Part shown: piece after piece, positions 1 through 51,379 of the stretch
Layout: every line of letters starts with the position of its first letter
How positions within the stretch are numbered: the stretch's first letter is position 1
Virus record (IMG/VR): IMGVR_UViG_2739367660_000007
Direction: 5' to 3' (one strand)
DNA length: 64,000 nucleotides
Source of the DNA: an uncultured virus (IMG/VR IMGVR_UViG_2739367660_000007)
Lineage: Duplodnaviria; Heunggongvirae; Uroviricota; Caudoviricetes
Position numbers and translations under genes: made by a program
Notes under the pieces: model-generated
Database searches by the model: none
Told to the model about the DNA's origin: nothing
The model's input: the letters and a program-made list of their open reading frames with translations, nothing else

Positions 1-1149
1 ATGACTTTGACCGACAACGCCTGCAAGAACGCCAAGCCTTCGGATGCGGCCAGAAAGATGTCGGATGGGGGCGGTCTTTACCTGTTTGTTACCCCGAGCG
101 GTTCGAAATTATGGAGGATGAACTACCGCTTCGAGGGGAAGCAGAAGACCCTATCCTTCGGCGCTTACCCGGCAGTAGGGCTCAAGGATGCCAGGGCGCA
201 CAGGGACAAGGCCAAGAGCGTTCTGGCTTCCGGTCGAGATCCTGCCGCGCAGACCGCAACTGAGGATAGCTTCGAGGCAGTTGCGCGAGAATGGCATCGC
301 AGCAACGAAACCAAGTGGGTGCCGCAACATTCAGCACGGGTTCTGAGCAGACTGGTGCAGGATGTTTTTCCAGAGATCGGCGGGACGCGGGTTTCGGAGA
401 TCACTCCGTCCCATGTGCTTGCTGTTCTGAGAAAGGTAGAAGGTCGCGGTGTGCGGGACACGCCTCGCCGGCTGCGACAGTCGATCAGCTCGGTGTTCCG
501 GTACGCGGTGGCATCGGGTCTGACGCAGCTGGACCCGGCAGCGAGCATTCACGACGCACTGAAAGCGCGGCCGAAAACAAAACACAGGGCGGCGCTGAAG
601 CCAGAGGAATTGCCGGAATTTTTCGCCAGACTGGCAAAATATGCCGGCAACCCGGTGACTGCCAAGGCGATCTATTTCACGATGCTGACCATGACCCGCA
701 CCGCGGAAGTTCGCTTCGCCACCTGGGCAGAATTTCAGGGGGACACATGGAGGATTCCGGCCGAGCGGATGAAGATGGGGAAAGAGCACCTTGTCCCACT
801 TTCACCTCAGGCGCAGGCAGTTCTGGCCACGCTGGACAGATCGACGGAATGGGTGTTTCCGGGTGTCCGCGGAAGCATGTCCGAAAACACGATGATCTAT
901 GCGCTTTACCGGATGGGATACCACAGCAGGGTCACTGTTCACGGCATGCGGTCTCTGGCCTCGACCATGATGAACGAAAGTGGCTTGTGGCGGGCGGATG
1001 CGATCGAGCGCCAGCTTGCTCATACCCCGAAGAACGAAGTGCGTGCCGCCTATAATGCTGCGCTATACTGGTCTGAACGGTGCCGGATGATGAACTGGTG
1101 GGGAGACTGGATCGAGCAGCAAAAGATGCTCGGTGAAATGTTGGGGTGA
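1..1149 (+). CDS. int: P4-like tyrosine integrase
   Basis: N-terminal arm-binding motif DGGGLYLFVTPSGSKLWRMNYRF; catalytic R (TRTAEVR), HGMR, LAH and Y (RAAYN). Confidence 0.95.
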   Translation: MTLTDNACKNAKPSDAARKMSDGGGLYLFVTPSGSKLWRMNYRFEGKQKTLSFGAYPAVGLKDARAHRDKAKSVLASGRDPAAQTATEDSFEAVAREWHRSNETKWVPQHSARVLSRLVQDVFPEIGGTRVSEITPSHVLAVLRKVEGRGVRDTPRRLRQSISSVFRYAVASGLTQLDPAASIHDALKARPKTKHRAALKPEELPEFFARLAKYAGNPVTAKAIYFTMLTMTRTAEVRFATWAEFQGDTWRIPAERMKMGKEHLVPLSPQAQAVLATLDRSTEWVFPGVRGSMSENTMIYALYRMGYHSRVTVHGMRSLASTMMNESGLWRADAIERQLAHTPKNEVRAAYNAALYWSERCRMMNWWGDWIEQQKMLGEMLG

Positions 1150-5484: not shown

Positions 5485-7188
5485 ATGAGCATTCAGGAAG
5501 AACTCAACGCATTGCTCGGCCCCGCCTCTCATCCTCCGGGCGAGGGCTATGCGGTCCACGCCCCGGCAACCGTGGCGGCGGTGGCCGGGGTGTCGGGCGG
5601 CGGTATTGCTCACGATGGTGCGAAAGCATTCAGTGAACTGGCGCTCTGGTCCCCGCCTCTGCGTTCGGTCAATGCTGACGTTCTGCCCGAGAAGGGCGTG
5701 CTCGATGCCAAGACCCGCGATCTGTTCCGCAACGATGCTTTTCTGTCCGGTGCAATGGTCACCCACAAGGACAGCATCGTTGGTGCGCGATTCATGCTGA
5801 ATGCTCGCCCCGCGACGAAGATCCTCTGGGGTAAAGAGGATGACACCTGGGAAGAAGAGTTTCAGGAGGAAATCGAAACCCGCTTCGATCTGTGGGCTGA
5901 ATCCCCCCATGGCTGGCCCGACGTGGGTAAGCGCAACACGCTCACTGCAACCGTGCGCCTCGGCGTCGGTGTTGATCTTGCCGGTGGCGAAGTTCTCGGT
6001 CTCGCGCGCTGGATGCCCAACGACGGCCGGCCCTATCGCACTGCATTTCAGATGATTGACCCGGATCGTCTTTCCGATCCGCTGACGCAGGCGTTCGTGT
6101 TTCCCAATCCGCGCCTGCGTCGCGGGATCGAGGTCGATGATTTCGGCGCACCCGTCGCGGCGTGGATCCGCAATTCGCATCCGTCTGATGGCCCGTTTCA
6201 CGACTATTCGGACATGAAGCGGAACGACTGGACGCGGGTTCCGTGGAACCGCCCATGGGGGCGCCAGAACATTCTGCACATCTTCGAGCAGATGCGCCCC
6301 GAGCAGGCCCGTGGCATTTCCATCGCTTCTTCATCTCTCAACGAGATGAAGATGACCAAGCATTTCCGCAAAGCGCAGCTTCAGCGTGCGACCTTGGCGG
6401 CGTCCTATGCAATGGCACTGGAAGCTGAATTGCCTCAAGACACCACGCAGGCCCTTGGTGTCGGGTATGCCGCAGACGGCAACGCCACGACCCAGTGGAT
6501 GCTCGACTATCTCGCTGCGGTGCAAGAGTATTCCGGTGGTGCGAAAAACCTGCACGTCGACGGTGTGCAGATCCCGATGCTGCCGCCAGGTTCCAAGCTG
6601 TCGGTTCAGAACACCGGGGCGACGGGGCCGAACGACGCCGAGTATGAAATCAGCCTGCTGCGGTATTCGGCTGCCGCGCTCGGTCTGCCGCTGGAAGAGT
6701 TCATCCACGATTTCAGACAGACAAACTATTCCTCGGTTCGCGCGGCGTTGGGGCGGATGTGGGTCTCGATGCAAGTGCGCAAGCGCATGGTTGCGGAGCG
6801 CATTGCCAACTTCATTTACCGCCTGTGGCTGGAAGAGGCGATCAATCGCAACGAGATCGAGAGCCTGAAGCGTCGCAACGTTCCTTCTTTCTACGAAGGT
6901 CTGAACGCCGAAGCCTATTCGGCTTGCGAATGGATCGGGTCCGGTCGGGGCACGATTGACCCGCTCAAGGAAACGCAGGCCGACATCCTGGCACTCAAAG
7001 CCGGAATTGAGACGAAGGAAGCGATCATCGCTCGCAGAAGCGGTGCCGATTACCGCCGTGTCGCGCGCCAGATCGCGCGTGAACGCAAGCTGGATGCCTA
7101 CTTCGAAAATCCGAGCGTCTACGACGCCGACAGCAAGAACGTGCAAAACTCGCTGACGGCGAGTCCGCGTGATGGGGCCGCCGCATGA
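5485..7188 (+). CDS. Portal protein, lambda family
   Basis: RDLFRND, RPEQARGI, TNYSSVRAAL and IDPLKE motifs. Confidence 0.93.
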   Translation: MSIQEELNALLGPASHPPGEGYAVHAPATVAAVAGVSGGGIAHDGAKAFSELALWSPPLRSVNADVLPEKGVLDAKTRDLFRNDAFLSGAMVTHKDSIVGARFMLNARPATKILWGKEDDTWEEEFQEEIETRFDLWAESPHGWPDVGKRNTLTATVRLGVGVDLAGGEVLGLARWMPNDGRPYRTAFQMIDPDRLSDPLTQAFVFPNPRLRRGIEVDDFGAPVAAWIRNSHPSDGPFHDYSDMKRNDWTRVPWNRPWGRQNILHIFEQMRPEQARGISIASSSLNEMKMTKHFRKAQLQRATLAASYAMALEAELPQDTTQALGVGYAADGNATTQWMLDYLAAVQEYSGGAKNLHVDGVQIPMLPPGSKLSVQNTGATGPNDAEYEISLLRYSAAALGLPLEEFIHDFRQTNYSSVRAALGRMWVSMQVRKRMVAERIANFIYRLWLEEAINRNEIESLKRRNVPSFYEGLNAEAYSACEWIGSGRGTIDPLKETQADILALKAGIETKEAIIARRSGADYRRVARQIARERKLDAYFENPSVYDADSKNVQNSLTASPRDGAAA

Positions 7189-8513
7189 AGAACACGTCCA
7201 TCCTTTCCCGCTTCCAGAACGAAGTTGCGATGTTGAACGCAACGCAACAGCCGTGGTTCGAGCATTGCGTTCATGCCGCGGCAGAATTTCTCGTGAAGAT
7301 GGAGGAAGATCAGGGGTCCACGCAGGTTGCGGCCTCCGGTTTCTGGTATTCTGAGGATGACTGGCGGTCGGCATACCGTCCCTACGATGTGCAGGATGGC
7401 ATTCTGCGTATCCCGGTGCGCGGCGTCATGCTCAACGGATATCCGTGGGCGACGCAGTGGGCGACCGGCTACGAGTACATCCTTGAAGCGATGAAACGCG
7501 GCATGGCTGATCCCGATGTGAAGGGGATCGCCCTCATCATCGACAGCCCCGGTGGCATGGTCAGCGGGAACTTCGATCTCGTTGACGACATCTTCGGGAT
7601 GCGGGGAACCAAGCCCATCCGCGCCTATGCATCGGATTCGGCGTATTCAGCCGCTTACTCCATTGCCTCGGCTGCCGACACCATCACCGTGAGCCGTTCC
7701 GGTGGTGTGGGCTCCGTTGGTGTCGTGACCATGCACGTCGATATGTCGGCTGCGATGGAGAAGTACGGCTACAAGATTACCTTCATCTATCGCGGGAAGC
7801 ACAAGACCGACGGCAACCCGTATGAGGCGCTGCCCGACGATGTGCGGGATCGCATTCAGGCGCGCATCGACAGCACCTATTCGGAGTTTGTGGGCATTGT
7901 CGCCCGCAACAGGGGTATGGACGAGGAGGCAGTCCGCAAGACGGAAGCCTTGACCTACTCGGCCCAGGAAGCACTCGACATCGGTTTTGCGGACAAGATC
8001 GGCCGCACCGACAGCGAGATCACGGCCTTTGCGGCCACCTTCAATCAAAGAAAGGACGAAGCGATGGCCGATAATAACGAGGCCCAAACCATCACCACCG
8101 AGGATGTGAACAAGGCGCGCGCCGAAGGTGCAACCGCCGAACGCACCCGGATTTCGGCAATCCTTGGCTCCGACGAAGCCAAGAAGCGTCCGACGATTGC
8201 GATGAAATTCGCGCTGAACGAGAAGTTCGCCTCGCTCGACGCCGCCGCGGTCAACGAGATGCTGGGCAGCCTGCCGGAAGAAAAGCAGGAACAGCCCGCG
8301 CAAGAGAAACCGCAAGCCGCCACGACCACGGCCGGGGCCGGCGTGCAGGGCGCCATTTTCGACGCTGCGATGGCGGCGACCCAGCCCGGTCACGTTTCGA
8401 CCGACGGCAAGGCCACCGAGGGCGGCACCAAGACCGAAGCCGATCAGGCTGCCGAAGACCGTGCGCTGCGTCAGGCTGCCGGCCTGGCGGGCTTCAACGA
8501 CAACACCAAGTAA
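7185..8513 (+). CDS. S49 prohead protease with C-terminal scaffold region (lambda C/Nu3-like)
   Basis: IDSPGG, AYSAAYSIASAAD, GSVGV motifs; Ala/Glu-rich C-terminus; internal AAAGGA-N7-ATG at 8064. Confidence 0.92.
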   Translation: MKNTSILSRFQNEVAMLNATQQPWFEHCVHAAAEFLVKMEEDQGSTQVAASGFWYSEDDWRSAYRPYDVQDGILRIPVRGVMLNGYPWATQWATGYEYILEAMKRGMADPDVKGIALIIDSPGGMVSGNFDLVDDIFGMRGTKPIRAYASDSAYSAAYSIASAADTITVSRSGGVGSVGVVTMHVDMSAAMEKYGYKITFIYRGKHKTDGNPYEALPDDVRDRIQARIDSTYSEFVGIVARNRGMDEEAVRKTEALTYSAQEALDIGFADKIGRTDSEITAFAATFNQRKDEAMADNNEAQTITTEDVNKARAEGATAERTRISAILGSDEAKKRPTIAMKFALNEKFASLDAAAVNEMLGSLPEEKQEQPAQEKPQAATTTAGAGVQGAIFDAAMAATQPGHVSTDGKATEGGTKTEADQAAEDRALRQAAGLAGFNDNTK

Positions 8514-8525
8514 CAGGAGGCTTTC

Positions 8526-8942
8526 ATGGCCAACGTCACCCCTCCCTATGCCGACCCTGGCCGGGCCTCGTTCGAGGAACTGGACACCTACCTGCAGAAT
8601 TTTCTGCTGGCTGGTTCCCATCCCGAACTGAAGCCCGCGTTCTCCGCTCCGATTCCGAACAGCGTCAATTACGCGCAGTTCACGGTGGTCGGCAAGAACA
8701 GCTCGGGTCAACTGATCCCGGCCACCTGGGACGCAACCACCCCGGTCAAGGCGATCGGCGTTCTGGTTCATGCCGTCGCGCTTGGCGCCTCGGGGAGCGC
8801 CAACGGTTCGTTCTGGTATTCGGGCTGCTTCAACATGGACTCGCTCGTCTGGGATGCGTCGTTCGACACTGAGGCGAAGAAACTGGCGGCCTTCGAAGGT
8901 TCGCCCACCCCCACCACCATCATCGTCGCCAAGCGCGGCTAA
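8526..8942 (+). CDS. Head decoration protein (lambda D-like)
   Basis: Between protease and capsid genes; KAIGVL...YSGCFNMDSLVW. Confidence 0.8.
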   Translation: MANVTPPYADPGRASFEELDTYLQNFLLAGSHPELKPAFSAPIPNSVNYAQFTVVGKNSSGQLIPATWDATTPVKAIGVLVHAVALGASGSANGSFWYSGCFNMDSLVWDASFDTEAKKLAAFEGSPTPTTIIVAKRG

Positions 8943-8954
8943 ACGGAGGCGACT

Positions 8955-10055
8955 ATGCCCGCTGATTCCCAAAACTACGAACTCTGGGACACCAATCGGT
9001 TCCTCGGCGTCTGGCGCGACGTGAAGCCGGATCCGCTGTACTGGACCGACTGGTTCCAGAACGAACTTCTGTCGGAAGACGAATACATCGACTTCGAGAA
9101 GATGCCTCTGGAAGGCCGGAAACTGATGCCGTTCGCCATGCCGCTGACCCGCGGCGGCGCCATCTACGAAGATTCCGGCAAGGCATTCCGGTTCAAACCG
9201 GCCTATGTGAAAGCGGAAGACCAGATTGATCCGCTGATGCCGCTGACCCGTCGCGTCGGGATCGACTCGAACGCGTCGCAGATGATGCCGAAACTGTCGC
9301 CGCCGCAGCGCCTCGACCTGATCCGCATGGCGATCACAGGTTCGCATTTTCGTGCTCACCAACGCCGTCTGAATCAGATGGCCTGCGTTGTGCTGCGCGA
9401 CGGCATGATCACGCTGAAGGGTCCGAACTACCCGGAAACGGTGGTCAACTTCGGTCGGGCTGCCAACCATACCATCACCCTCGGCGCCGGTTCGCGCTTC
9501 GGTGACTCCGGGGTCTCGATCCTGGACTTCTTCCAGTTGGTTATCGACCGGATGGCGACGGCAGAGTTCGGTGGTTTCCCGACGCGGGTTACCATGGGCG
9601 GCGGTGTCTGGAAGGTGATGCGCAAGGACGCGGAACTGAAAGATTTCCTCGACCTGAACCTGAAGCAGAACGATCGCGTGACGCTGGAGCGTGGTCTGAC
9701 CAATGGTGAACCCGTCTACAAGGTTGGCGAGTTCATGGTCGGCGGCGCCAGCGGGCGCACCATCGAACTGTGGGTGGACGATTCCACCTATATCGACCCG
9801 AACACCAAGCTGGCGACCCGTTACATCGGCAACCACCAGATGCTGTTCAAGTCGACGCCGGATGCGGTCATGGGCTATCAGGCTTTCGGCCGCATCATCT
9901 CGCGCCGGGCGAACTGGGCTCCGATGCGTCTGTTCCCGCTGAACTGGCTGTCCAACCCCCCGGAAGAGACCGAGTACATCACGCACCAGAGTGCGCCGCT
10001 GATGGCTCCGCTGAATCCGAACGCGACGCTGCTCGCCAACGTGATCGCACCGTGA
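8955..10055 (+). CDS. Major capsid protein (lambda E family)
   Basis: 366 aa; FKPAYVK and QSAPLM motifs; strong codon bias. Confidence 0.92.
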   Translation: MPADSQNYELWDTNRFLGVWRDVKPDPLYWTDWFQNELLSEDEYIDFEKMPLEGRKLMPFAMPLTRGGAIYEDSGKAFRFKPAYVKAEDQIDPLMPLTRRVGIDSNASQMMPKLSPPQRLDLIRMAITGSHFRAHQRRLNQMACVVLRDGMITLKGPNYPETVVNFGRAANHTITLGAGSRFGDSGVSILDFFQLVIDRMATAEFGGFPTRVTMGGGVWKVMRKDAELKDFLDLNLKQNDRVTLERGLTNGEPVYKVGEFMVGGASGRTIELWVDDSTYIDPNTKLATRYIGNHQMLFKSTPDAVMGYQAFGRIISRRANWAPMRLFPLNWLSNPPEETEYITHQSAPLMAPLNPNATLLANVIAP

Positions 10056-10112
10056 TCGTGAACCGGGCGGCCTGAACTGGCCGCCCACTCCCAACATCAA
10101 GAGGAAACCGCC

Positions 10113-10463
10113 ATGAAGCTCGGTTACACCATTCACGAAGTCCAGAAGGGCAAGGACACGATCATCGCTCCCGGCCGTGTGCATCCGTTCGATGATCAGG
10201 AGCATGACGATCTGGCTCGCCTCGGCGCCATTCGTGAGCCTTCGCGCGACGAGATTGCGCTGTACGAAGCACTGCTGCCGGCCGTCGAAGAAGAAGATCC
10301 GAAGAAGTCGCCGGAACGGGAACAGCTTGAAGCCAAGGCCACTGAGCTTGGCGTCAAGTTCCAGGCGAATACCGGCGACGCTGCTCTGTTGAAGCGCATC
10401 GAAGAAGCCGAAGCCAAGAAGGCTGCGACGACCGGCACCAATCCCGGCGACGATACGCTCTGA
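10113..10463 (+). CDS. Capsid-associated / packaging accessory protein (lambda FI position)
   Basis: Position after capsid gene; C-terminal LEAKATELGVKF..N motif. Confidence 0.55.
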   Translation: MKLGYTIHEVQKGKDTIIAPGRVHPFDDQEHDDLARLGAIREPSRDEIALYEALLPAVEEEDPKKSPEREQLEAKATELGVKFQANTGDAALLKRIEEAEAKKAATTGTNPGDDTL

Positions 10464-13567: not shown

Positions 13568-16500
13568 TGGGCCGTGAGACATTCTCCGATCTCAAGATCA
13601 GGGCCACCGACCAGTTCAGCTCGACCCTTGAAAAGGGCAAACGGAACTTTGACGAGTTCAGGAAATCCCTGACCCGCAAGGAAATTGTTCAGGAATCCCT
13701 GAAACAGAAAGACGCGATCCGGCAACTTGGGACCGAGATCGAGACGCTTCGCGACAAGTATCGTCAGTATGCGGAGCAGACGCGGCAGGGCGCGGCTACC
13801 CGGCAAGTCGGGATCGAAATGGTCCAGACCCGGGCGAAAATTCTGCAAACCAAGGATGCGATCGAGCAGCAGCGCGAAAGCCTGCAGCGCCTTCGCGGCG
13901 TAGCTGGTGGAACCTTTCGTGAGTTTTCTCAGCGTGCATCTGAAGCGGCTTCTGCCGCGATCCGGCAAGCTGAAGCCGAACGCAAGGCCACTGCTGTATC
14001 GCAGAAGAAAGCGGAAATTCAGGCCCGGCTGAACGCACAGGCCCGCAGTGGTTTTGCTGACTGGAATCATTACATCGAGACCATTCATCGGCTGCAGGCG
14101 GCCGAGGAACGCAGCGCGCGGCAGGCTGCCCTGAAGGAGCAAATTCAGGCCCGGCTGACTAGCCGAGTGGTCAGCGGGTTTTCGGCATGGCAGCGACAGA
14201 TCGGTATTTACGATGCGGAGTCCGCAGCCTTTGTTCGCAGCCATGCTGCCCTGAAACGCGCAGAAGGTGCTGCGACACAAGCTGCCGGTGCGCAGAAGCG
14301 TCTGAAGCAAGCCGTGGATGCCACGACGGCATCGGTTCAGCGTCAGAATGCCGTTGAAAGCCGCGTCCTTCCGTTCGGAAGTGCGGCCGGTGGACGCGCA
14401 TCGCGGGGCAAGAAGTTCGGCGGCGAAGATGCCGGTGTCGAGATGTACGGTCTTCGGCCGTATCAGATGGTCAATCTCGGGTATCAGATCAACGACGTGA
14501 TCGGTGGCGTGGCGATGGGGCAGGCGCCGTTGCAGATTCTCGCGCAGCAGGCCGGTCAGTTTGCGCAAATCTGGCCGGAAGCCATGGTTGCGCTGGTTCG
14601 CGGAGTCCCGATCCTTCTCGCCGCAGGCGCAGCTTTCAGCCCTCTGATTGCAGCCATGATGCGGGTTTCTGAGCAGAAGGAAAATCTGCGGTTCTTCAAC
14701 CAGCAACTTGCTGTCAGCGCAGACGGCGGCCGATATAGCGCTGAAGGATTGAGTCAGGCGACGCGCGAAATGCGCAAATTCGGCGTAGCGACCGAAGATG
14801 CCAGGACTATGCTGATGGGATTTGTTTCAGCAGGCATTGACCAAGGTCAGTTCGTCGGGCTGGGTAGGCTGGCGAAAGACCTGGCCGAAGTTACAGGGCA
14901 GGACGTACCTGCTGCTGCTGAAAAAATGCTGACGGCTTTCCGTGGTGGTTCGCAAGGCGTGCGCGACCTTGATCGTGAGATGAACTTCCTCACGGCCTCG
15001 CAACTTGATCAGGTTCGTGCGATGGAGCGTGCCGGTAACGCCGCTGGTGCGATGGCACTGGCACAAGGCGCATTGCGTGACAAACTCGCAGCAACGAAGC
15101 CTGAACTGACCGAGTGGCAAAAAGCCACGAAAGAAATGGGTCAGGCTTGGGACGATCTCGTCACCGCAGTCGAACAATCCGGTCTCATCGAACTTGCATC
15201 AAAGGGCCTGATGCTCGTTGCCATGTCCGCGAAAGGTTGGGCGTATCTTGCGCGAAATGCCAGTGGCGCGATCCAGTCTACCATCGCTCCGAATGACCTC
15301 CAACGGATGACAGCACTGACGGATCGCCGCAACAAGATTCTGAACGACATAGCGCGTGACGATGGTGCTTTTGCCCCAAGAACTGCCGCACTGCAGGAAG
15401 AACTCGCGGCTGTCGAGGCTGAAATCGAAAGCATTCTCCGAGATCAGAACGAAGCCTACAAAGAGGCTTCCGATCTTCGGGACCAGAACAAAGATGCTTC
15501 GGAAGCCGAAAAGAAGATCCAGTCTGACATCAATTTCGAATTGGATCGGCAGATCGAAACTGCTCAGCGTGAAGCCGAACTCGCTGCGCTGACCAATCGG
15601 GAACGGTTCATCGAGCAGGGTCTCCTGGAAGCCAAAACCCGCGCAATGGAAGCGCAAAAGGCGCTTGGTCTCGATGCTGTCGGCCTCACCGAGGAACAGA
15701 ACAGGCTTCTGCGCGAACGTCTCGGAATGGCTTTCGATACCCAAGCCAGTGCCGAACTTATGACCTCATCGGGCATGAGCGGTCTCGTCGACAAGATTGT
15801 TGGCGTGGAAAGCGGCGGCAATGCCTCTGCTAAAAATCCTCAGTCAACTGCCACAGGTCTCGGTCAGTTCATCGCAAGCACTTGGCTGGATATGTTCCGG
15901 CGCTACTTCCCAGATCGCGCTGCGAGCATGAGTGAAGCGGCTATCCTGGAACTGCGGAAGGAGTCGGCTATCTCCCGCAAGATGGTCGAACTTTACGCAA
16001 TGGAGAATGCGAAAGTTCTCCAGTCGGCCGGCGTAGCGGTCAACGAGGCATCGCTTTATCTCGCCCACTTCCTCGGTCCTCGCGGTGCAGCAGGCGTCAT
16101 GGCTGCGTCTGCTTCTACCCCGGTTTCCAGCATTCTTGGGGCAGACCAGATCGCCGCCAACCGCAGCATCCTCGAAGGGAAGAATGCCGGGGAAGTTCGC
16201 GCCTGGTCGCAACGGAAGATGGGAGTTTCGTCAGCCGAACTCGATATCAGCCGGGAAATGGTCAAACTGGATGAAGACCGGGCGAAAAAGGCTGCCGACG
16301 AAGAAGAAAAGCGCCTGAAGCGTGAAGCCGATTACATGCGTTCTTACGCGGAGCGCATGGAAGGTCAGAAACTCGAACTGTCTCTGCAAACCCAGGAAGC
16401 CCGTCAGGCAGCAATCACCAAGGCGCTGTATGACGAGGAACTGAAGGCAAAGGAGGCCGGGCTTCAACTCACCAAGGAGCAGCGCGACGAAATCGCCTCT

Positions 16501-43196: not shown

Positions 43197-43397
43197 ATGT
43201 GCGAGCTGCAATTCTGGAAGACCGAAGCCGAAGTTCTGGACTACATCCGCAGCGAATTTCTCGCTACGCTGAATGACGATCTGGAGCGCATGGAAGGGGC
43301 CGAGCGGCAACACTATGAGGATGAGGACCGCGAAGAGATGCGCGCCCGGATTGCCGATCTGGAATCCATCATGCCGCGGCTGACGGTGACGCCGTGA
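43197..43397 (+). CDS. Small acidic hypothetical protein
   Basis: Overlaps the ATPase start (GTGA). Confidence 0.65.
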   Translation: MCELQFWKTEAEVLDYIRSEFLATLNDDLERMEGAERQHYEDEDREEMRARIADLESIMPRLTVTP

Positions 43398-44584
43398 ACG
43401 GAATCCAACTGGCCCAGGGCGTCACTCTGCCGCTTTCCCATGCCTGCAAACATGCCCTTATCACTGGCGCAACGGGGACCGGCAAAAGCACAACCGCGGG
43501 CGCCATGGTGGAAGGGCTGTCAGCCGCAGGCGTTCCGGTGCTGGTATTCGACGCGAAAGGCGACCTTGAGTCGCTGGGGGCGCGCGTCTGGTGCCCATTC
43601 GGCCAGCGCGGCGCGCATCGTGCAATCAATCTCGGGGCAGCTGGTGCCGATCTGGTGGCCCGCGCCCTGGACCTGAGCCCGGCGCAATCCGGTGCCGTGG
43701 AAATTGTCGCGGCCTATGCCGAAGATAAAGGCTATGCTTTGGCCTGTCTCGACGATCTGCAAGCCGGGTTGCGAATCTGCACCGAACAGCGCGCCGCCGT
43801 ATCCGCTCAATATGGCCTGTTTTCCCCTGCCAGCGCTGCCGCGGTTTCGCGTGCCATTCTGCCCCTGCGCCGCGCTATCGGTGACGCTTTCGGGTTGCCC
43901 GGTCTCGACCCTTTCGAAGCGGCTTCGGCGGGCGGGGTGACTGTTTACAGTTGCGGGCGTCTGGCACAGTATCCGGGCGCCTATGCTGCCGCCGTGACCG
44001 CCTGCCTTTTGACGCTTTATCGTGATGCGGCCGAGCTGGGGCAGGTTGACCGCCCCGCGTTGGCGGTTCTGGTGGATGAAGCGCATTTGATATTTGACGG
44101 CGCGACTCCGGCGCTGGTGCGAAAGCTGGAACAGGTCGCTCGCCTGGTGCGGTCCCGTGGCGTGATGCTGATTTTCGCCACGCAATCGCCCGCCGATCTG
44201 CCGCCCGTCATTTCTGCCCAGTTGATCACGCGAATCCAGCACGGACTCCGCGCCACCACGCCGGGCCAAGTCGCAGCGGTGCGGGCGGCAGCTATGGGGC
44301 TGCCGAGTGCAGGCGGCCGTGATCTGAGCGGCGAGATTCTGGCACTCGGGGTAGGGGAGGCGCTTTGCAGCGTGCCAGATATGCGAGGGCGACCGGGTGC
44401 CGCGGTGCGGGCGAAGATGCGCCGGGGCCGGATCGAACTTCGCCCGATCGAGGTGGCGCGGCCCGCCACTGTGCCGGTGGTCAAAGCGTTTCGGCCGGAT
44501 CCGCCAGGCCCGTTGCCGGTGAAAGAGGATCGGGGATTGTGGCGCTTGCTCAATCCGATTGCGCGGCTTTTCGTGCGAATTTGA
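43394..44584 (+). CDS. HerA/FtsK-superfamily ATPase (DUF853/YjgR-like)
   Basis: HALITGATGTGKS, GVPVLVFDAKGDL, VLVDEAHLIF, VRSRGV..IFATQSPADLP and RIQHGLRA. Confidence 0.88.
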   Translation: MNGIQLAQGVTLPLSHACKHALITGATGTGKSTTAGAMVEGLSAAGVPVLVFDAKGDLESLGARVWCPFGQRGAHRAINLGAAGADLVARALDLSPAQSGAVEIVAAYAEDKGYALACLDDLQAGLRICTEQRAAVSAQYGLFSPASAAAVSRAILPLRRAIGDAFGLPGLDPFEAASAGGVTVYSCGRLAQYPGAYAAAVTACLLTLYRDAAELGQVDRPALAVLVDEAHLIFDGATPALVRKLEQVARLVRSRGVMLIFATQSPADLPPVISAQLITRIQHGLRATTPGQVAAVRAAAMGLPSAGGRDLSGEILALGVGEALCSVPDMRGRPGAAVRAKMRRGRIELRPIEVARPATVPVVKAFRPDPPGPLPVKEDRGLWRLLNPIARLFVRI

Positions 44585-44650: not shown

Positions 44651-44680
44651 CTCTGGCCTGAATTTCTCTGGCCCAGGTGC

Positions 44681-45610
44681 AGCCGATCACCGGATCGGGC
44701 AGCCGATCACCAGGTCGGGCAGCCGATCACCAGGTCGGGCAGCCGATCACCAGGTCGGGCAGCCGGTCACCAGATCGGGAAGCCGATCACCAGATCGGGA
44801 AGCCGATCACCAGATCGGGAAGCCGATCACCAGATCGGGCAGCCGATCACCAGGTCGGGCAGCCGATCACCAGGTCGGGCAGCCGATCACCAGATCGGGC
44901 AGCCGATCACCAGATCGGGCAGCCGATCACCAGGTCGGGCAGCCGATCACCAGATCGGGAAGCCGATCACCAGATCGGGCAGCCGATCACCAGGTCGGGC
45001 AGCCGATCACCAGATCGGGAAGCCGATCACCAGATCGGGCAGCCGATCACCAGGTCGGGCAGCCGATCACCAGATCGGGAAGCCGATCACCAGATCGGGA
45101 AGCCGATCACCAGATCGGGAAGCCGATCACCAGATCGGGCAGCCGATCACCAGATCGGGCAGCCGATCACCAGATCGGGAAGCCGATCACCAGATCGGGC
45201 AGCCGATCACCAGGTCGGGCAGCCGATCACCAGATCGGGAAGCCGATCACCAGATCGGGAAGCCGATCACCAGATCGGGAAGCCGATCACCAGATCGGGC
45301 AGCCGATCACCAGATCGGGAAGCCGATCACCAGATCGGGAAGCCGATCACCAGATCGGGAAGCCGATCACCAGATCGGGAAGCCGATCACCAGATCGGGA
45401 AGCCGATCACCAGATCGGGAAGCCGATCACCAGATCGGGAAGCCGATCACCAGATCGGGAAGCCGATCACCAGATCGGGAAGCCGGTCACCAGATCGGAA
45501 AGCCGGTCACCGGAGCGGGCAGCCGATCACCGGATCGGGCAGCCGGTCACCGGATCGGGCAGCCGGTCACCGGAGCGGGCAGCCGGTCACCGGAGCGGGC
45601 AGCCGGTCAC
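44681..45610. repeat. 20 bp tandem repeat array, 46.5 copies
   Basis: Unit AGCCGATCACCAG(A/G)TCGGG(A/C), in perfect register. Confidence 0.98.
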
Positions 45611-45826
45611 GCAAAGTCACGTTTAACTTGACATTCAACCCGAATCGCCGCTTTCTTGTTGTCAGACAGAGACACAAGCCGGGATGACCGGCGGAAAGGC
45701 TGACAATGGGAATCGCTCAATACCTGCTGACCTGTGCCGCGCGTTGTGAAGCGCGGGGGATGATCTGCAAAGCTGCCGAATATAGGTCGCTTGCAGCAAA
45801 ATTCGAGATGATGGAGGGTTGAAGTA

Positions 45827-46120
45827 ATGAAAGAAATTATCAACATGCCCGGATATATGGGCAAGCCGTGGCAAGTCACCGGATACGCTAAATCCGGGCT
45901 GATTGTTCACAAGATGGGTGAAACATGGGTTGTTTCCCATATCGTGACCGGATGCCGCATCGGACCCGGAACAAGACTCAAGCGCGATGCAATCGCTAAA
46001 CGCGATAGCCTTCTCGGGCTGATAGACGACTGGACGGCGGAAAGCGTTGAGGCACTCGGAAAACAATATCCTGAGGGAACCCGCGCTTTTACCGATGCTG
46101 TCCGCTCAATCGCGTACTGA
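45827..46120 (+). CDS. Hypothetical early protein
   Basis: RBS GGAGG; downstream of TTGACA at 45628. Confidence 0.6.
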   Translation: MKEIINMPGYMGKPWQVTGYAKSGLIVHKMGETWVVSHIVTGCRIGPGTRLKRDAIAKRDSLLGLIDDWTAESVEALGKQYPEGTRAFTDAVRSIAY

Positions 46121-46131
46121 GGGACAGAACA

Positions 46132-46350
46132 ATGGCTAAAGATGAATTGACCATTTGGCGCCTGACTTGGAGTCACGCCACCGGAGTTTATTGGCTTGGC
46201 ATGCGGATCTGTCAGGCCAGCGACGCGGAATCTTGGTTGGATATTTTCCGCAAAAACGAAAGCGGCGTTACTTTTGAAGCAAGCCGAAAGAAACCCGCTT
46301 TACCTGACAATGCGCGCCAAATGGCGCGCCATGTCGCAATGTTTCGCTGA
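46132..46350 (+). CDS. Hypothetical early protein
   Basis: RBS GAGGGA. Confidence 0.6.
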   Translation: MAKDELTIWRLTWSHATGVYWLGMRICQASDAESWLDIFRKNESGVTFEASRKKPALPDNARQMARHVAMFR

Positions 46351-46362
46351 TAGGGGGATGGG

Positions 46363-46773
46363 ATGAAAACTAGCGTCACAAATAAATTCACGACTGGCCA
46401 TTATGGCTTGCGCGATACTTTCGACATACCAGAGGGGACTCCGGTCATCTTCGGCGCGCCGGATTGTGAGGGGAAGCCTTTCCCCCATTGGACTCTTTCG
46501 GTTGAAACGGCCGCACAGCTTTCCGGGAATCTGCATGACTCCGCGCATCGCTTTGTCGTCGTGCATCCCGATCACGTCACGCCGGCTGACGGTGACGGAT
46601 ACGCTGCACAATTGGCTTATAGCCGGTCACAGCTGCCAACGCTGGCCGAAGTCAGATCCAAGGCGCGACGCGAAAAGAGGGAAATTGTCGAACGCGTGCT
46701 AATGGCAAATGACTCCGTTGCATGCATCAAAGCCGGGCCGCGCGGTGGCCTGAAAATTCTTGGCCGGTTCTGA
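46363..46773 (+). CDS. Hypothetical early protein
   Basis: Purine-rich RBS; operon context. Confidence 0.6.
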   Translation: MKTSVTNKFTTGHYGLRDTFDIPEGTPVIFGAPDCEGKPFPHWTLSVETAAQLSGNLHDSAHRFVVVHPDHVTPADGDGYAAQLAYSRSQLPTLAEVRSKARREKREIVERVLMANDSVACIKAGPRGGLKILGRF

Positions 46774-46785
46774 GGAGTCCATACC

Positions 46786-46977
46786 ATGAAACCCGACAAC
46801 TGGGGCGAAGGCTACCAAGCCGGACTCACTGGCCTGACCTATGACGACAACCCGCACAAGGCGGAACCGGCCGGAATGGCATGGGCTTTCGGATGCGGCG
46901 AAGGCATGAAGGAACGGAACCGGCTGGCGTTTGCCGCTATCATGTCAGCGCTGCAGGAACAGGCGAAGCCGGAATGA
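46786..46977 (+). CDS. Rmf/CrpP-like small protein
   Basis: EGYQAGLTG....NPH......AW..G..EG pattern; RBS GAGGAG. Confidence 0.5.
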   Translation: MKPDNWGEGYQAGLTGLTYDDNPHKAEPAGMAWAFGCGEGMKERNRLAFAAIMSALQEQAKPE

Positions 46978-47301
46978 CCGCCGTCAGCTACACGGCCGCC
47001 CATATCGGCCGCGACGGCGCGACGCTGAGCAGCTCAGGAAGCCGGTTCACATGCAGCGCGGCGTTGCGCAGCTGGATCCGTAACCAGTGCCAGATTGCGG
47101 GTTTTCCTGCAAATGCCAGGCGCCAAGTCTGCACGCTGACCCTGTGGCGCAACATTCGGGCAGGGCACGCGGAGTCTTTCACAATCCGAAACTACCAGCC
47201 CGGTCGCGTTAGCGCGATCCACTTCACCGGAGTCCGTCACTCTTGACGTGCAGGCGGAACACCTAGAGCCTTTACCAGGGCTAGAGACCTAAGGGGGAAA
47301 A

Positions 47302-47547
47302 ATGTCTTCACTCAAAAAATTCAACGTAACTCTCGACGGCGTTACGCTTGGTCAGGTTAATGCCATGTATTCGCATCCCGCCTGGCCTGACTACGCCGCG
47401 GCGGTTCACATGATCCCTGCGCGCAAGAGGCAAATGTATAGCCGCCGCATTCCGACGTATGACGGCCGCCTGAGTCTGACAATCCAGATGACCAACAGCC
47501 GCGGCAAAATTTCCGGGCAGGTGAAATTTGTGCCTGTTGAAGAGTAA
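47302..47547 (+). CDS. Hypothetical protein next to the mini-CRISPR
   Basis: RBS AAGGGGG; 81 aa. Confidence 0.6.
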   Translation: MSSLKKFNVTLDGVTLGQVNAMYSHPAWPDYAAAVHMIPARKRQMYSRRIPTYDGRLSLTIQMTNSRGKISGQVKFVPVEE

Positions 47548-47570
47548 AGCGGCCGCCCACAATGAAGGGG

Positions 47571-47660
47571 CGGCCTATCCCCGCGTGGGCGGGGAACGCA
47601 TATCTCCCTCACAAGAGGAACCCCGATAGTGAGGGTCATCCCCGCGTGAGCGGGGAACAT
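47571..47660 (-). CRISPR. Type I-E-like mini-CRISPR array: 2 repeats, 1 spacer
   Basis: 29 bp repeats at 47571-47599 and 47632-47660 (minus strand GCGTTCCCCGCCCACGCGGGGATAGGCCG and ATGTTCCCCGCTCACGCGGGGATGACCCT), 32 bp spacer, 61 bp period. Confidence 0.9.
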
Positions 47661-47664
47661 CAAC

Positions 47665-47692
47665 AGGATACATAATGGCGACATATCGTCAA
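47665..47692 (-). promoter_or_regulatory. Putative promoter of the mini-CRISPR
   Basis: TTGACG-16 bp-TATCCT, 4 bp before the first repeat, with AT-rich upstream sequence. Confidence 0.55.
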
Positions 47693-47721
47693 CAGAAATA
47701 CAAATAACATCACCAGCATAG

Positions 47722-47747
47722 GGCGCCGCAAGGCGCCTTTATCTTTT
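47722..47747 (+). terminator. Intrinsic terminator
   Basis: GGCGCC-GCAA-GGCGCC followed by TTTATCTTTT. Confidence 0.7.
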
Positions 47748-47793
47748 GACCTGTGACCGGCCGCCCTGTGATCTGGGGCGGCCGTTTGCATTT

Positions 47794-47999
47794 GTGGTGC
47801 TGCTCTGCTGCCCTGCGAGGTGCTGCCCTGCTGCCCTGCGTGGTGCTGCCCTGCTGCCCTGCTGCCCTGCGTGGTGCTGCCCTGCTGCCCTGCGTGGTGC
47901 TGCCCTGCTGCCCTGCGTGGTGCTGCCCTGCTGCCCTGCGTGGTGCTGCCCTGCGAGGTGCTGCTCTGCTGCCCTGCGAGGTGCTGCTCTGCTGCCCTG
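47794..47999. repeat. Compound tandem repeat, about 9 units of ~23 bp
   Basis: GCG(T/A)GGT followed by 1-3 copies of GCTGC(C/T)CT; 18 GCTGC in total. Confidence 0.95.
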
Positions 48000-48169
48000 T
48001 GATCGGATGCAAGCAGGGGGATTGTGCGCGTTGCGTGCATCCTGGCGCCGATTGATCTGGATTCACCTGTAACACATTGATCTGAATGCGCTTTCCGTGC
48101 ATCTGGCTTTGGGTCCTTCCGGTGGCGGGTGACGGGATGCGGGCAGCCCCGACCCCGATTCATGCACCT

Positions 48170-48880
48170 GTTCAATTTTTCCCTAGTAAAACATCAAGTA
48201 AAACAATGCCTTACACCTAAACTAAACCGTATAGTTTACTTGCAATGTTATAATATAACAAACTGAACCGTTTAGTTTAGTTTCCGGTCACCCGATGCGT
48301 TGCAGTCCGAGGTCGGGGTAGGGCTGCGAAAGCATGTGTTTTCAGGAGATAAGTCGCACACGACAGAATTTTCGGAATCAGGGGAGAAGATGCATTTAAA
48401 TCGACCACGGTTGGGCTTTATGCCGAAATCACGAGGGTAAACAGAGTAGTCAGAGTGTAGACAGGTAGAGTAGTCATGTTAAGTCTTTGTTTTTACAGTT
48501 GAAGTCTCATATTCTACTCTGTCTAGTCTATTGTCTAAGGAAGCAACGTAATAAGGGCAAAGTGTTTTATATCAACCGGGCATATAATGCCGACCAGTGG
48601 TCGGGATAAAAACACCCCTGTACGTATACTATATAAGAAGGGGGTGTAGGCATGTAGTAAGAGTAGCCAATCGTTTTTTTTGTATAAAATTCAATAACTT
48701 AACCTGACTACTCTAGTGGCTACACCCGTGGCTACTCCCAGCAGACTAGTCGGCCTGATTGGAAACGCAGGCAACGGTGGATTGATTTATGTGAATGATC
48801 GACTTGAAACGAAAAAACCCGACGCGATGCGCCGGGTGTAATTCAGATCAATGATGCGTTTAGATCAATCTTAGATATTA
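48170..48880. other. AT-rich non-coding region, candidate replication origin
   Basis: No ORF; direct and inverted AGAGTAG(T/C)CA repeats; directly downstream of the primase-helicase. Confidence 0.55.
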
Positions 48881-51379
48881 TCACAGATCTAAGATTTCGG
48901 TCACATTCAAAGAATACCCGTCTCTGACGTACAGCCTTTGTCTGCCGTACTTCTTCGTTCTGATCTGATATTTAGAGACACGCTGCCACCCCGGAACCCG
49001 GTTTATCGCAGTGCCGATCTTGACCGCAGAAGCCTGATCCAGTTCTCCGATCTTCCGACCCATCATCCCGATCCAGATATCCGCGACGCAGGTGACGTTC
49101 CGCAGGCTTTGCGGTGCGCTCGGGTCAAGATCATCAGAACCTTCTGCCGGCCCCGTGGGCTCGTTCAGCCACGCCTCGATCTGCCCGGAAAGGGTATCGG
49201 CCACCGTCTCGACACGCCGGCTTTCCTGAAGCTCTTTTGCCTCACGCTTCGCGTCGTCGTGCTGGAGGTAAAGGGGCAGGTTCCGCTTTTTGCACGTCCT
49301 GCGCATCTCGACATAAATTTGATAGGCTTCCGCCCAAACCTGGTCGATCACGCTTTCGAGCTTATCCGTGTCGATATCCACGTCATCAGGCAGCTGGCAC
49401 TTGATCGGCCAGAAGCGACGGCCCCCGGTATGGTCCCGCAGATATTCGTCATCATTGGTGCTGCCGAGGAAGACGCATTGACGCTGGAAGATCTGCGCTC
49501 GGCGGGCATAGGCCATTCGCACCTTGTCGAACGTGGCCGAGATGAAGCCCTTGAGCACGTTGGTATCCGCCCGGCTGAAGCCCTGCAGTTCCGGTATCTC
49601 GATGATCCATGCACCCTGAATCTGCTCGACCATCTGCTGCCGGTTATGGAAGTCTCCGCTCAGCTCTGCGAACCACATCGAGCGGCCGAGAATGCTGATG
49701 AAGGTAGACTTCCTCTTGCCCTGCAATCCTTCCAGGATCGGCACGAAATCGAACTTGTGCCCGGGTTCCATGACGCGGGCGACTGCGCCAACAAGGATCA
49801 GCCTCGCGGCCTCCCGATGGTAGGGTGTGTCGTCGCATCCGAGGAAGTCGACAAACAGCTGATCTGCGCGCGACTGACCGTCCCATTCGAGAGACTGAAG
49901 ATACGCGCGTACCGGGTGGAAGCGCATGTTGTTCGCCACGATATCCACCGCGGCTTTCATATCGCGATCGGTGACCTTGAACCCGTAACCGCCCTGACCC
50001 TTGGGCGCCTCGACGACAAGCCGAAGACCCTGATCGTGGGAATCAGTCCAGAGGTGCCCATTCACGGGGTCAGATACGCGCCAAATCTCCGAATCGAGGT
50101 TCAGGACCGGCTTCGCGCTGTCCCGTTTCTTTGACACCCTCTTGGGCTCGTTGATCAGCACCGCCTCGCTCGTGAACTCATTCAGGGCGAGGATGCCGTG
50201 GCATCGAACATCGTTCTGCAGCACGAGTTTGATGTTGTGGAGGGTCGATGTGGGTTGCCCGTCGTCATTTCTGGTCAGATAGCTGGTCCAGTTTTCGTCG
50301 ATCTCGGGGGCTTTGGGTGCGATATCGGGCGGCGCTGCTGCGCCGAGCAACGACATCAGCTCGTCGTCATAGGCAGAATCAGCTACGACTGCCGGCAAGT
50401 TGCGCTGCAACCGGGCTTCGTTCGCCGCCTGAATCACAGTGCGAAAGGTGACCGGCCGAAGGTCTCCCTTGAAGGATTTCCAGACCGATTTCTGGGTCTT
50501 CGGGTCATATTTTGCCGACTGCTTTGACCATTCGCACCAGAGATCGAAGCCTTTTTGGCCACCCTGATACTGATGGTGCAGTGCTGAGCCGAGCGTGACC
50601 CAGGTATCCCGGTCCTCTACCCAGTTTTCCGGCAGATCTTGTACTGCCTTTTCGACTTCTTCGTCTGAAATGTCGACTGGCGCGGTGCGCAGTTCGCGGA
50701 TGAGGTCGTCTTCGTCATCATCGAATGGATTTTCGTCAGAAACGACCTTTGCGCCCCATTTTTCGACCGTTTCCGACGAAATTGCGTCAAAAATACCCAT
50801 TTCGAGGCTGAAAAAGTCAAAAGGACGCTCCCAAACGTAGGCGAGGCCGGTATCCGGGTGGATGCTCGGGGGGATGACCGCATAGGAACCAGTGCCGAGC
50901 AGGTCGATTTCCCAGTGGTTTTTCTTCACATCCCGGTTCTTCGACGGGTCAAAAACCATCGAATATCCGTCTGATTTTGCCAGTTTTCGCTTGGAAAACG
51001 GCTTGTCGGTGACGAACCAGATGTGGCGAGAATGTCCGCCCGATCCGCTGATCACCGAGGGGAAGGTTTCCCACTGCGGAAACAGATCGGACAGGGCTTT
51101 GCGAGCCTCGTCGGCCAGATCAGCGTTGCGAATGTCCAGGTCGATGATGTGGATGAAACCGAAAGGCGTGGCCGAGGGCTGTCCGAGACGGATACCGACG
51201 TTTGATTCAGGCAGATAGGACCGTCGAAGCGCATCCAGATCAGGTCTCGGTTGCGATGACCACTCAGCCTGCCTGGGGTTTTTCCGCCTCGGCTGCAGCC
51301 ACATGAGACAAGCCCCGTTCCCGATCAAACCGGAACAGGCAGACAGGACGCTCTCAAGCGTCAGGGACGTATCCGTCAT
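48881..51379 (-). CDS. Primase-helicase: Prim-Pol + PriCT-2 + VirE/VapE-like ATPase
   Basis: IIDLDIR, SGSGG..RH, VIPPSIHPDTG; W...G.ALH...W.EWS; LEGLQGKRKST and DHTGGRRFWP. Confidence 0.92.
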   Translation of the reverse strand: MTDTSLTLESVLSACSGLIGNGACLMWLQPRRKNPRQAEWSSQPRPDLDALRRSYLPESNVGIRLGQPSATPFGFIHIIDLDIRNADLADEARKALSDLFPQWETFPSVISGSGGHSRHIWFVTDKPFSKRKLAKSDGYSMVFDPSKNRDVKKNHWEIDLLGTGSYAVIPPSIHPDTGLAYVWERPFDFFSLEMGIFDAISSETVEKWGAKVVSDENPFDDDEDDLIRELRTAPVDISDEEVEKAVQDLPENWVEDRDTWVTLGSALHHQYQGGQKGFDLWCEWSKQSAKYDPKTQKSVWKSFKGDLRPVTFRTVIQAANEARLQRNLPAVVADSAYDDELMSLLGAAAPPDIAPKAPEIDENWTSYLTRNDDGQPTSTLHNIKLVLQNDVRCHGILALNEFTSEAVLINEPKRVSKKRDSAKPVLNLDSEIWRVSDPVNGHLWTDSHDQGLRLVVEAPKGQGGYGFKVTDRDMKAAVDIVANNMRFHPVRAYLQSLEWDGQSRADQLFVDFLGCDDTPYHREAARLILVGAVARVMEPGHKFDFVPILEGLQGKRKSTFISILGRSMWFAELSGDFHNRQQMVEQIQGAWIIEIPELQGFSRADTNVLKGFISATFDKVRMAYARRAQIFQRQCVFLGSTNDDEYLRDHTGGRRFWPIKCQLPDDVDIDTDKLESVIDQVWAEAYQIYVEMRRTCKKRNLPLYLQHDDAKREAKELQESRRVETVADTLSGQIEAWLNEPTGPAEGSDDLDPSAPQSLRNVTCVADIWIGMMGRKIGELDQASAVKIGTAINRVPGWQRVSKYQIRTKKYGRQRLYVRDGYSLNVTEILDL

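Follow-up and report, generated by a model that had tools for sequence, protein, structure and literature searches.

At positions 47692-47550 of the window, the whole stretch of 64,000 nt that was analyzed, the minus strand carries a mini-array. It consists of a promoter-like site, a pair of repeat-like units of type I-E (PsiR1 and PsiR2), the spacer-like guide between them (PsiS), and a hairpin (Table 1). This confirms the layout proposed in the initial annotation, which had described a phage-borne type I-E mini-array of repeat, 32-nt spacer, and repeat.

Table 1. Features of the mini-array and of the surrounding window (window coordinates)
Feature	Position	Strand	Basis or remark
-35 box TTGACG	47692-47687	-	sequence read
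-10 box TATCCT	47670-47665	-	sequence read; 16 nt after TTGACG
Promoter-like site TTGACG-16-TATCCT	47665..47692	-	promoter scan, 9/12 consensus matches
Repeat-like unit 1 (PsiR1), ATGTTCCCCGCTCACGCGGGGATGACCCT	47660-47632	-	hairpin CCCCGC-TCAC-GCGGGG, Cas6e-type
8-nt 5' handle ATGACCCT	47639-47632	-	supplied by PsiR1
32-nt spacer-like guide (PsiS), CACTATCGGGGTTCCTCTTGTGAGGGAGATAT	47631-47600	-	between PsiR1 and PsiR2
Repeat-like unit 2 (PsiR2), GCGTTCCCCGCCCACGCGGGGATAGGCCG	47599-47571	-	hairpin CCCCGC-CCAC-GCGGGG
21-nt 3' handle	47599-47579	-	supplied by PsiR2 hairpin
Predicted mature 61-nt crRNA-like RNA (handle, guide, 3' hairpin)	47579..47639	-	from known Cas6e cleavage position
GC-rich hairpin GGCCGCCCC-loop-GGGCGGCC	47551..47575	-	common to mini-array and convergent ORF
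Orphan 81-aa ORF	47302..47547	+	convergent with mini-array; AAGGGGG-N5-ATG ribosome-binding site
Accessory cassette, ~500 bp (81-aa ORF and mini-array)	47210..47710		metagenomic contigs
AAG PAM (15979-15981) and 32-nt protospacer (15982-16013) in tape-measure gene	15979..16013	+	C34 spacer, 32/32
Integrase	1-1149		PHROGs
Tape-measure protein, 1270 aa	13567-17379		PHROGs
Primase/helicase	48881-51379	-	PHROGs

The window, located at G000:C8:155126-219125 in the host genome, is a prophage. Besides the integrase, tape-measure protein, and primase/helicase, the products assigned with PHROGs include the small and large terminase, portal, protease, major head, and tail proteins and endolysin, as well as methyltransferases, thymidylate synthase, exonucleases, and DNA polymerase. 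No cas family was found among the 59 ORFs compared with PHROGs and the eight compared with Pfam, as the initial annotation had claimed, and the same comparison returned no known anti-CRISPR (Acr) family, in libraries that hold few of them. ARAGORN made one call, a tRNA-Val inside the portal ORF that is probably spurious. The element is flanked by a run of small unassigned plus-strand ORFs on one side and by the primase on the other.

Transcription from the promoter-like site would start a few bases ahead of the first repeat hairpin. The annotated promoter was called by the scan, but the single call in the region compares with 0.8 expected by chance and is not significant alone. Folding of the element yielded two 7-bp tetraloop hairpins, in keeping with the claim that both repeats retain the Cas6 stem, together with a third hairpin (z = -4.03 relative to shuffled sequences), and a repeat finder detected a direct repeat of 21 nt with 95% identity at a spacing of 61 nt. 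Cas6e cleaves at the base of the repeat hairpin. When the repeats were compared with the host type I-E arrays, a check proposed at the outset, PsiR1 matched the host array repeat at 25 and PsiR2 at 23 of 29 positions (manual count). The counterpart of the prophage 5' handle, ATGACCCT, reads ATGAACCG in the host array, and the host mini-array has ATGACCCG. A search of Rfam with window 46500-48800 (E ≤ 10) returned no CRISPR-DR family and only three chance-level matches. The GC-rich hairpin, annotated as having a U-rich tail, does fold and is likely a bidirectional terminator, although the terminator scan passed it over owing to the weakness of its T-run.

The convergent 81-aa ORF is a candidate partner of the mini-array, such as an Acr. 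In a search restricted to proteins of near length, it had no homolog other than itself, and it had no match in Pfam, PHROGs, the PDB, or the Atlas feature search. The AF2 model (pLDDT 60) was too poor for a structure search. Together, the ORF and the mini-array form a compact accessory cassette, the limits of which are defined by metagenomic contigs. In an 8.3-kb contig from run X6 with matches to the flanks, 60 other letters take the place of the sequence between 47209 and 47711, and a contig from run X7 diverges at 47209. A related metagenomic phage therefore lacks the cassette and carries other sequence in its place. Lack of conservation in related phages had been named beforehand as evidence against a functional element, and to this extent it was observed. 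It is not taken as a refutation, since an accessory, patchy spread is usual for anti-defense cassettes. In run X21, guessed to be RNA, contigs fell on a tandem-repeat stretch and elsewhere but not on the element, and the uncovered parts are uninformative.

The Host Type I-E System and the Target of the Prophage Guide

A pattern search of the whole genome for the same repeat type identified two arrays, a long one on contig C34 and another on C5, together with a site of two units at C34:8435-8514. The genes on C34 are ordered repA, repB, and repC, followed by cas3 (5934-8456), cse1 (8813-10291), cse2, cas7, cas5e, cas6e, and cas1e. Cas3, Cse1, Cse2, Cas7, Cas5e, Cas6e, and Cas1e all exceed the curated cut-offs of the core NCBIfam models; a Cas2-sized ORF (14126-14413) follows cas1e, and about 60 repeats come next. 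The cas genes are apparently intact by length and family match. The type I-E system that the initial annotation had proposed to look for in the host is complete and resides on a RepABC plasmid contig.

The two-unit site at the end of cas3 comprises GATACCCCGCATGTGCGGGGATGACCCG, a 31-nt guide CACTATCGGGGATCCTCTTGTGAGGGAGAAA, and GCGTTCCCCGCCAACGCGGGGAT, followed by GTAAG and CACTAGCGCGGTTCCTCTATGTGAGGGA. It reads as a degenerate two-repeat mini-array between cas3 and cse1. An Rfam scan of this gap gave sub-threshold matches only. The prophage guide is the same as the guide of the host mini-array (C34:8461) at 29 of 32 ungapped positions, with positions 1-11 identical. Homology between phage and host is limited to 69 nt with 92.8% identity (BLAST, E = 5e-20; second search, E = 2.7e-21) and extends from the first hairpin to the second, the part expected to yield the mature RNA. 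Because this match of 69 nt at 92.8% is to the host cas locus, a chance resemblance is excluded.

A scan of the genome anchored on the first five guide bases found a single AAG-flanked target with an intact seed, at C34:8520. This target lies in the gap between cas3 and cse1, directly downstream of the host mini-array and 54 nt upstream of a TTGACA box (C34:8574). Of its 18 PAM-proximal positions, 16 agree with the prophage guide (mismatches at 6 and 9) and 15 with the host guide (mismatches at 6, 9, and 12). Past position 18, one extra target base shifts the register between guide and target. The search for a protospacer suggested in the initial annotation thus had a divided outcome: GenBank phages and PLSDB plasmids gave only partial matches to the guide (E ≥ 3), but the cas3-cse1 gap held a target with AAG and seed, which had escaped the first reading because it is located on another contig. 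The earlier suggestion that the spacer guides Cascade to a promoter or leader, or serves as a decoy, is supported, in that the spacer closely copies a regulatory guide of the cas locus and has its target upstream of a promoter-like box.

The host also carries a spacer against its own prophage. Spacers from the host arrays were compared with the genome (50 from the C34 array and 13 from C5, with about nine left out), and the C34 spacer after the 38th repeat matched the tape-measure gene at all positions (Table 1). Given a perfect spacer, a competent PAM, and an intact type I-E system, the lysogen must tolerate or suppress its own interference. This is circumstantial support for an anti-CRISPR somewhere in the prophage and by itself is not assignable to the element.

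Cognate Guides in Related cas Loci

To ask whether the host mini-array encodes a genuine Cascade guide, 80 loci encoding relatives of Cse1 (47%-74% identity) were considered, mostly from Rhodobacter, Gemmobacter, Paracoccus, Rhodovulum, and similar bacteria. In 19 of the 80, a loose hairpin expression detected repeat-like units at most 750 nt ahead of cse1. The set analyzed was picked by the hairpin expression and by eye and consists of 13 relatives and the host (14 loci); one true array (L071), three loci with no mini-array by eye (L029, L033, and L036), and two with units further upstream (L037 and L062) were dropped. In L037 the mini-array further upstream fits by eye, and in L062 the target is ambiguous.

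Each guide-target pair was aligned on the closest AAG or ATG, no more than 3 nt away, and the resulting PAM tally of 13 AAG and one ATG in the 14 loci is partly by construction. Guide and target vary between loci yet match within each of them: cognate pairs agree at 13-17 of 18 positions, whereas non-cognate pairs (n = 182) average 11.0 and reach 14 at most. The mismatches are unevenly distributed along the guide. None was observed in the 70 cells of positions 1-5, whereas position 6 was mismatched in nine, position 12 in 12, and position 18 in 11 of the 14 loci. Combined, positions 6, 12, and 18 account for 32 mismatches in 42 cells, as against 20 in 210 at the remaining positions within 1-18 (Fisher, 2e-18). 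Mismatches in about three-quarters of cases are the expectation for unconstrained bases, and in type I effector complexes every sixth guide base is flipped out. The pattern at 6, 12, and 18 reads as the signature of Cascade pairing in this family of regulators. The comparative set provides a clean evolutionary read-out of such pairing, with an invariant seed and freely variable positions 6, 12, and 18. Mismatches at sixth positions have also been noted for type I-F1 (Shmakov et al., 2023, 10.1101/2023.03.03.530964).

A TTGAC motif is found 23-54 nt past the start of the target in 11 of the 14 loci. The host has the most distant arrangement, with the protospacer starting 54 nt upstream of TTGAC; among the 10 other loci with the motif, the distance is 23-40 nt. 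From this conservation, we infer that the TTGACA box at C34:8574 is an active promoter.

Beyond the host, the element has a narrow distribution. The guide/target pattern was found in none of 400 other genomes of the family and, as an exact pattern, in no GTDB representative or JGI metagenome. In IMG/VR, it occurred in one UViG, which is 99.5% identical to the prophage over 5 kb with an identical element and is not independent. The cassette gave repeat-level matches only, in two of 15 congeneric genomes, and no match in 25 more distant ones; megablast with window 45600-49000 found no match in GenBank phages or PLSDB. Relatives of the primase were located at two loci in IMG/VR, one of them the same prophage, and a phage with a primase of 48% identity (L096) has no repeat-like hairpin. 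A scan of IMG/VR for the repeat type returned at least 123 loci with 43 of 64 parts covered. Among the matches listed, 525 repeat-adjacent sequences included none cognate to the 14 guides or targets (best, 10 of 15), which is a weak test. The element is thus rare and recently acquired rather than conserved in the phage lineage.

Interpretation of the Prophage Element

Descriptions of RNA anti-CRISPRs that copy a Cas regulator of the host are very recent, and natural examples studied in context are few. Liu et al. (10.1101/2024.10.29.618823) named and tested such RNAs as Cracr, with 219 candidates including type I-E. In their account, a type I-E array of a Salmonella prophage lowered casA transcription and immune crRNAs and restored infection by T7 in a guide-dependent manner, and the criteria for a Cracr are location on a mobile element, outside the cas locus, and at least nine PAM-proximal matches to the CreR/CreA guide (10.1101/2024.10.29.618823). 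The present element is in a prophage and the cas genes are outside it, on C34; the first 11 guide positions are identical to those of the host regulator. The target is AAG-flanked and partial, and the repeat-guide-repeat arrangement has kept its Cas6 hairpins and host-like handles. As judged from its sequence, the element qualifies as a putative Cracr by mobile-element, location, and guide-match criteria, and it is probably a prophage-encoded RNA anti-CRISPR of this type that mimics the CreR/CreA guide of the host.

We infer a mechanism that runs from transcription and processing of the RNA to its loading, the repression, and the gain for the phage. In this scheme, the mini-array would be transcribed from its own promoter, and host Cas6e would cut both repeat hairpins to release an RNA of ~61 nt with the handle ATGACCCT, the 32-nt guide, and the 3' hairpin. 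This crRNA-like RNA would load into the type I-E Cascade of the host and pair with the AAG-flanked target at C34:8520, between the host mini-array and the TTGACA promoter-like box upstream of cse1. Because pairing covers only the PAM-proximal 18 nt (16 of 18, and none in the distal part), Cascade should bind without licensing Cas3. Two effects are predicted. The promoter driving the CreT-like small RNA (see below), the Cascade operon, or both would be further repressed, and Cascade would be titrated away from about 60 immune crRNAs, one of which matches the prophage perfectly.

The promoter-like site and hairpin that the element has of its own, within a compact accessory cassette, support the Cracr reading. 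Against it are the chance level of the promoter call, the weak T-tail of the hairpin, and the lack of conservation of the cassette. The host retains a cognate mini-array, which also counts against this reading, as the extra benefit of a second guide is less evident. Occlusion of the promoter is less obvious in the host because the protospacer is 54 nt from TTGAC rather than 23-40 nt as elsewhere. Tolerance of the self-targeting spacer could have its source in another inhibitor or in a silent cas operon.

In its mobile-element location, repeat-guide-repeat arrangement, copied CreR/CreA guide, and predicted AAG-flanked target in a type I-E promoter region, the element resembles the Cracr described (10.1101/2024.10.29.618823). 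It differs from the validated type I-E example, which has two guides of 24 and 21 nt, in having a single guide of 32 nt, and from the examples given there in its alphaproteobacterial host and plasmid-borne type I-E system. The main text of that report names neither Rhodobacter, Paracoccus, Alphaproteobacteria, nor Rhodobacterales, and its supplementary tables may list the element. Regulatory mini-arrays in prophages have been described by Shmakov et al. (2023, 10.1101/2023.03.03.530964), with which the element shares the prophage copy, conserved seed, mismatches at sixth positions, and mobile accessory context. Those mini-arrays are of types I-F1 and I-B and are reported exclusively alongside cas loci without one of their own, whereas here the cognate type I-E locus keeps its own. 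If the Cracr reading holds, a viral mimic in the same cell as a cas locus with its own regulator would contradict the reported mutual exclusivity. The combination of a cognate cas locus with its own regulator and a perfect self-targeting spacer in the same cell sets the element apart from the known cases in these reports.

An alternative is that the element is a captured relic, a fragment of a cas locus that entered a variable region of the phage by illegitimate recombination and is unused, with tolerance of the self-targeting spacer provided by a protein Acr (for example, the 81-aa ORF) or by a silent cas operon. The cassette is missing from the related phage and from 15 congeners, and in the collections searched, the guide pattern occurs otherwise only in the 99.5%-identical copy of the same prophage; the element could thus be a recent, unselected capture, and a promoter call at chance level fits this reading as well. 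A relic would not be expected, however, to have homology ending precisely at the mature-RNA unit, with both Cas6e hairpins intact, the handle retained, and a promoter-like site and hairpin on the flanks, or to have a guide that fits the target slightly better than that of the host does. This explanation is considered unlikely.

The element could also act purely as a Racr-type decoy, with repeat hairpins that soak up Cas6e and Cascade subunits and a guide that is irrelevant. Solitary repeat-like hairpins reportedly are capable of inhibiting CRISPR-Cas, and like Racr, the element is predicted to give an RNA that derives from repeats, is encoded by a phage, and makes use of Cas proteins. The Cracr model also includes competition for these proteins. 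Simple sequestration would de-repress a locus guarded by CreR or CreTA (10.1101/2024.10.29.618823). A Racr is a single repeat-like unit without a functional guide, whereas the prophage carries a complete repeat-guide-repeat unit, its two repeats at the canonical spacing of 61 nt and its guide directed to a specific target. The guide is moreover the part best conserved relative to the host regulator, which makes a pure decoy improbable. An offensive mini-array that aims the Cascade-Cas3 of the host at a competing phage or plasmid, or at the cas-bearing plasmid itself, is a very remote prospect: mini-arrays are reportedly used by viruses in interviral conflict and the sole target is on a plasmid contig, but the PAM-distal half of that target does not match and the plasmid and prophage coexist. 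No full PAM-flanked protospacer was found elsewhere in the genome itself or in GenBank phages or PLSDB (all E ≥ 3), and searches of IMG/VR, GTDB representatives, and JGI metagenomes for an exact pattern gave none either.

The Host Module and Its CreT-like Unit

Like the type I-E CreR of Salmonella enterica (10.1101/2023.03.10.532045), the host mini-array at C34:8435-8514 is a degenerate unit of two repeats that lies upstream of casA/cse1 and has an AAG-flanked, partial PAM-proximal match. In contrast to Salmonella CreR, the element in the window is in a prophage. The host module, for its part, apparently includes a small RNA resembling a toxin, and a CreR is defined by having none. Downstream of the TTGACA box, the aligned loci have in common a 5' hairpin, GCCG...CGGC, a Shine-Dalgarno sequence, and a mini-ORF of 5-7 codons. 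In the host, GAGGGG is followed by GTG CAT AAA ATA CCC TGA (C34 8693-8710), and an 11-bp hairpin with a T6 run comes after the mini-ORF and ends 18 nt before cse1. Mini-ORFs of the relatives include ATG CAG AAA ATA CCC TTC TGA and GTG CAT AGA ATA CGC TGA; others are ATG AGA ATC TTA ATA GCC TAA and ATG AGA ATC CTA AGA GCC TGA. The four sense codons that the host uses least are TTA, CTA, ATA, and AGA, at 0.19-0.79 per thousand in 1599 high-GC3 ORFs of its genome, and ARAGORN found no phage tRNA for rare codons.

Mini-ORFs were present in eight of 15 loci scored with a mini-array and in six of 60 scored without one (Fisher, 6e-4). Two of these six, L023 and L032, have degenerate mini-arrays with AAG-flanked targets that the hairpin expression overlooked. 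RNAalifold gave no consensus structure for 10 promoter-to-cse1 regions, the alignment of which was too gapped.

The CreT RNA toxin combines rare codons and a stem-loop with a start codon and a strong Shine-Dalgarno sequence (PMC8501985). The host module is like CreTA as described there in its guide, PAM-flanked partial target upstream of a promoter, Shine-Dalgarno sequence, rare-codon mini-ORF, and stem-loop or terminator (PMC8501985). The unit downstream of the TTGACA box is a probable CreT-like guard toxin, and the host module as a whole (C34:8435-8800) may be a CreTA rather than a toxin-less CreR. If so, the prophage RNA would act as a mimic of the antitoxin. A bolder version of the Cracr reading can be put forward tentatively: the host module may be an undescribed CreT-type guard of Rhodobacterales type I-E systems built on rare codons (AUA/AGA/UUA/CUA), and the prophage RNA an antitoxin mimic that would enable lysogeny, in the face of a perfect host spacer with a competent PAM against the tape-measure gene, by filling Cascade with a harmless guide and keeping the toxin promoter shut, possibly together with the 81-aa ORF as an Acr. 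One lysogen holding the mimic, a cognate plasmid type I-E system with its own regulator, a probable guard toxin, and a perfect self-targeting spacer would be a natural test bed.

The putative mini-ORFs differ in detail from the toxins described. CreT has two identical consecutive rare codons (PMC8501985), whereas most of the mini-ORFs in the present loci have one rare codon or two that are not identical. Citrobacter rodentium is known to have a CreTA of type I-E, the toxin of which is different, a 96-bp ORF without rare codons (PMC12055562).

CreT-like unit ahead of the host cse1 gene

On the RepABC plasmid contig of the host genome (C34) there is a unit resembling CreT, the RNA toxin of CreTA modules. 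A TTGACA box comes first, followed by a 5′ hairpin, then GAGGGG with a mini-ORF, and last a strong terminator, which ends 18 nt upstream of cse1. The mini-ORF behind GAGGGG reads GTG CAT AAA ATA CCC TGA. Homologous mini-ORFs carrying the rarest codons ATA, AGA, TTA and CTA are found in related Rhodobacterales type I-E loci, among which the guide-target pair differs from locus to locus.

Features located in the window and in the host and congeneric genomes
Feature	Location	Remarks
CreT-like unit	host C34:8574-8800 (locus L010), outside window	between host mini-array target and cse1
Protospacer with AAG PAM	window 15979-16013	tape-measure gene; C34 array spacer identical (32/32)
Second array, 14 repeats	host C5:281909-282714, outside window	repeat GGCTCCCCCGCATACGCGGGGATAGACCC
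Solitary type I-E repeat-like unit GTTCCCCGCACTCGCGGGGATGAACCC	G414:C5:42317-42348 (locus L222)	congeneric genome
20-bp tandem array, unit GCAGCCGATCACCAGATCGG	window 44679-45610	46.6 copies, 95% matches
Irregular GC-rich tandem array, TGCTGCCCTGC-type units	window 47794-47999	periods 15, 23, 46

Other CRISPR sequences in host and congeneric genomes

The C34 array spacer matching the tape-measure gene is self-targeting in the lysogen, in which the host cas operon appears intact. The repeat of the second host array differs from that of the C34 array, yet a search of the host genome revealed only one Cas6e. Spacers of this second array match C21:33835-33865 at 31/31, with AAC as the preceding bases, and C40/C41:1080-1111 with 2-3 mismatches. 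The solitary unit in the congeneric genome has no second repeat-like unit nearby; it could be a Racr-like (RNA anti-CRISPR) or a degenerate regulator.

Tandem arrays and minor gene calls in the window

The GCAGCCGATCACCAGATCGG array follows closely on a HerA/FtsK-like ATPase gene (43394-44584) and may be of the centromere-like or iteron kind; the long ORFs spanning it are probably artefacts. The TGCTGCCCTGC-type array is found directly upstream of the promoter-like site of the element, and short high-depth contigs from the public metagenome run X21 match this stretch only. A 63-aa ORF (46786-46977) weakly resembles ribosome modulation factor: its match to Pfam RMF (E 5.9e-5) scores 23.5 bits, short of the 27.9 cut-off. 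The 89-nt tRNA-Val(CAC) called by ARAGORN within the portal ORF (5575-5663) is probably a false positive.
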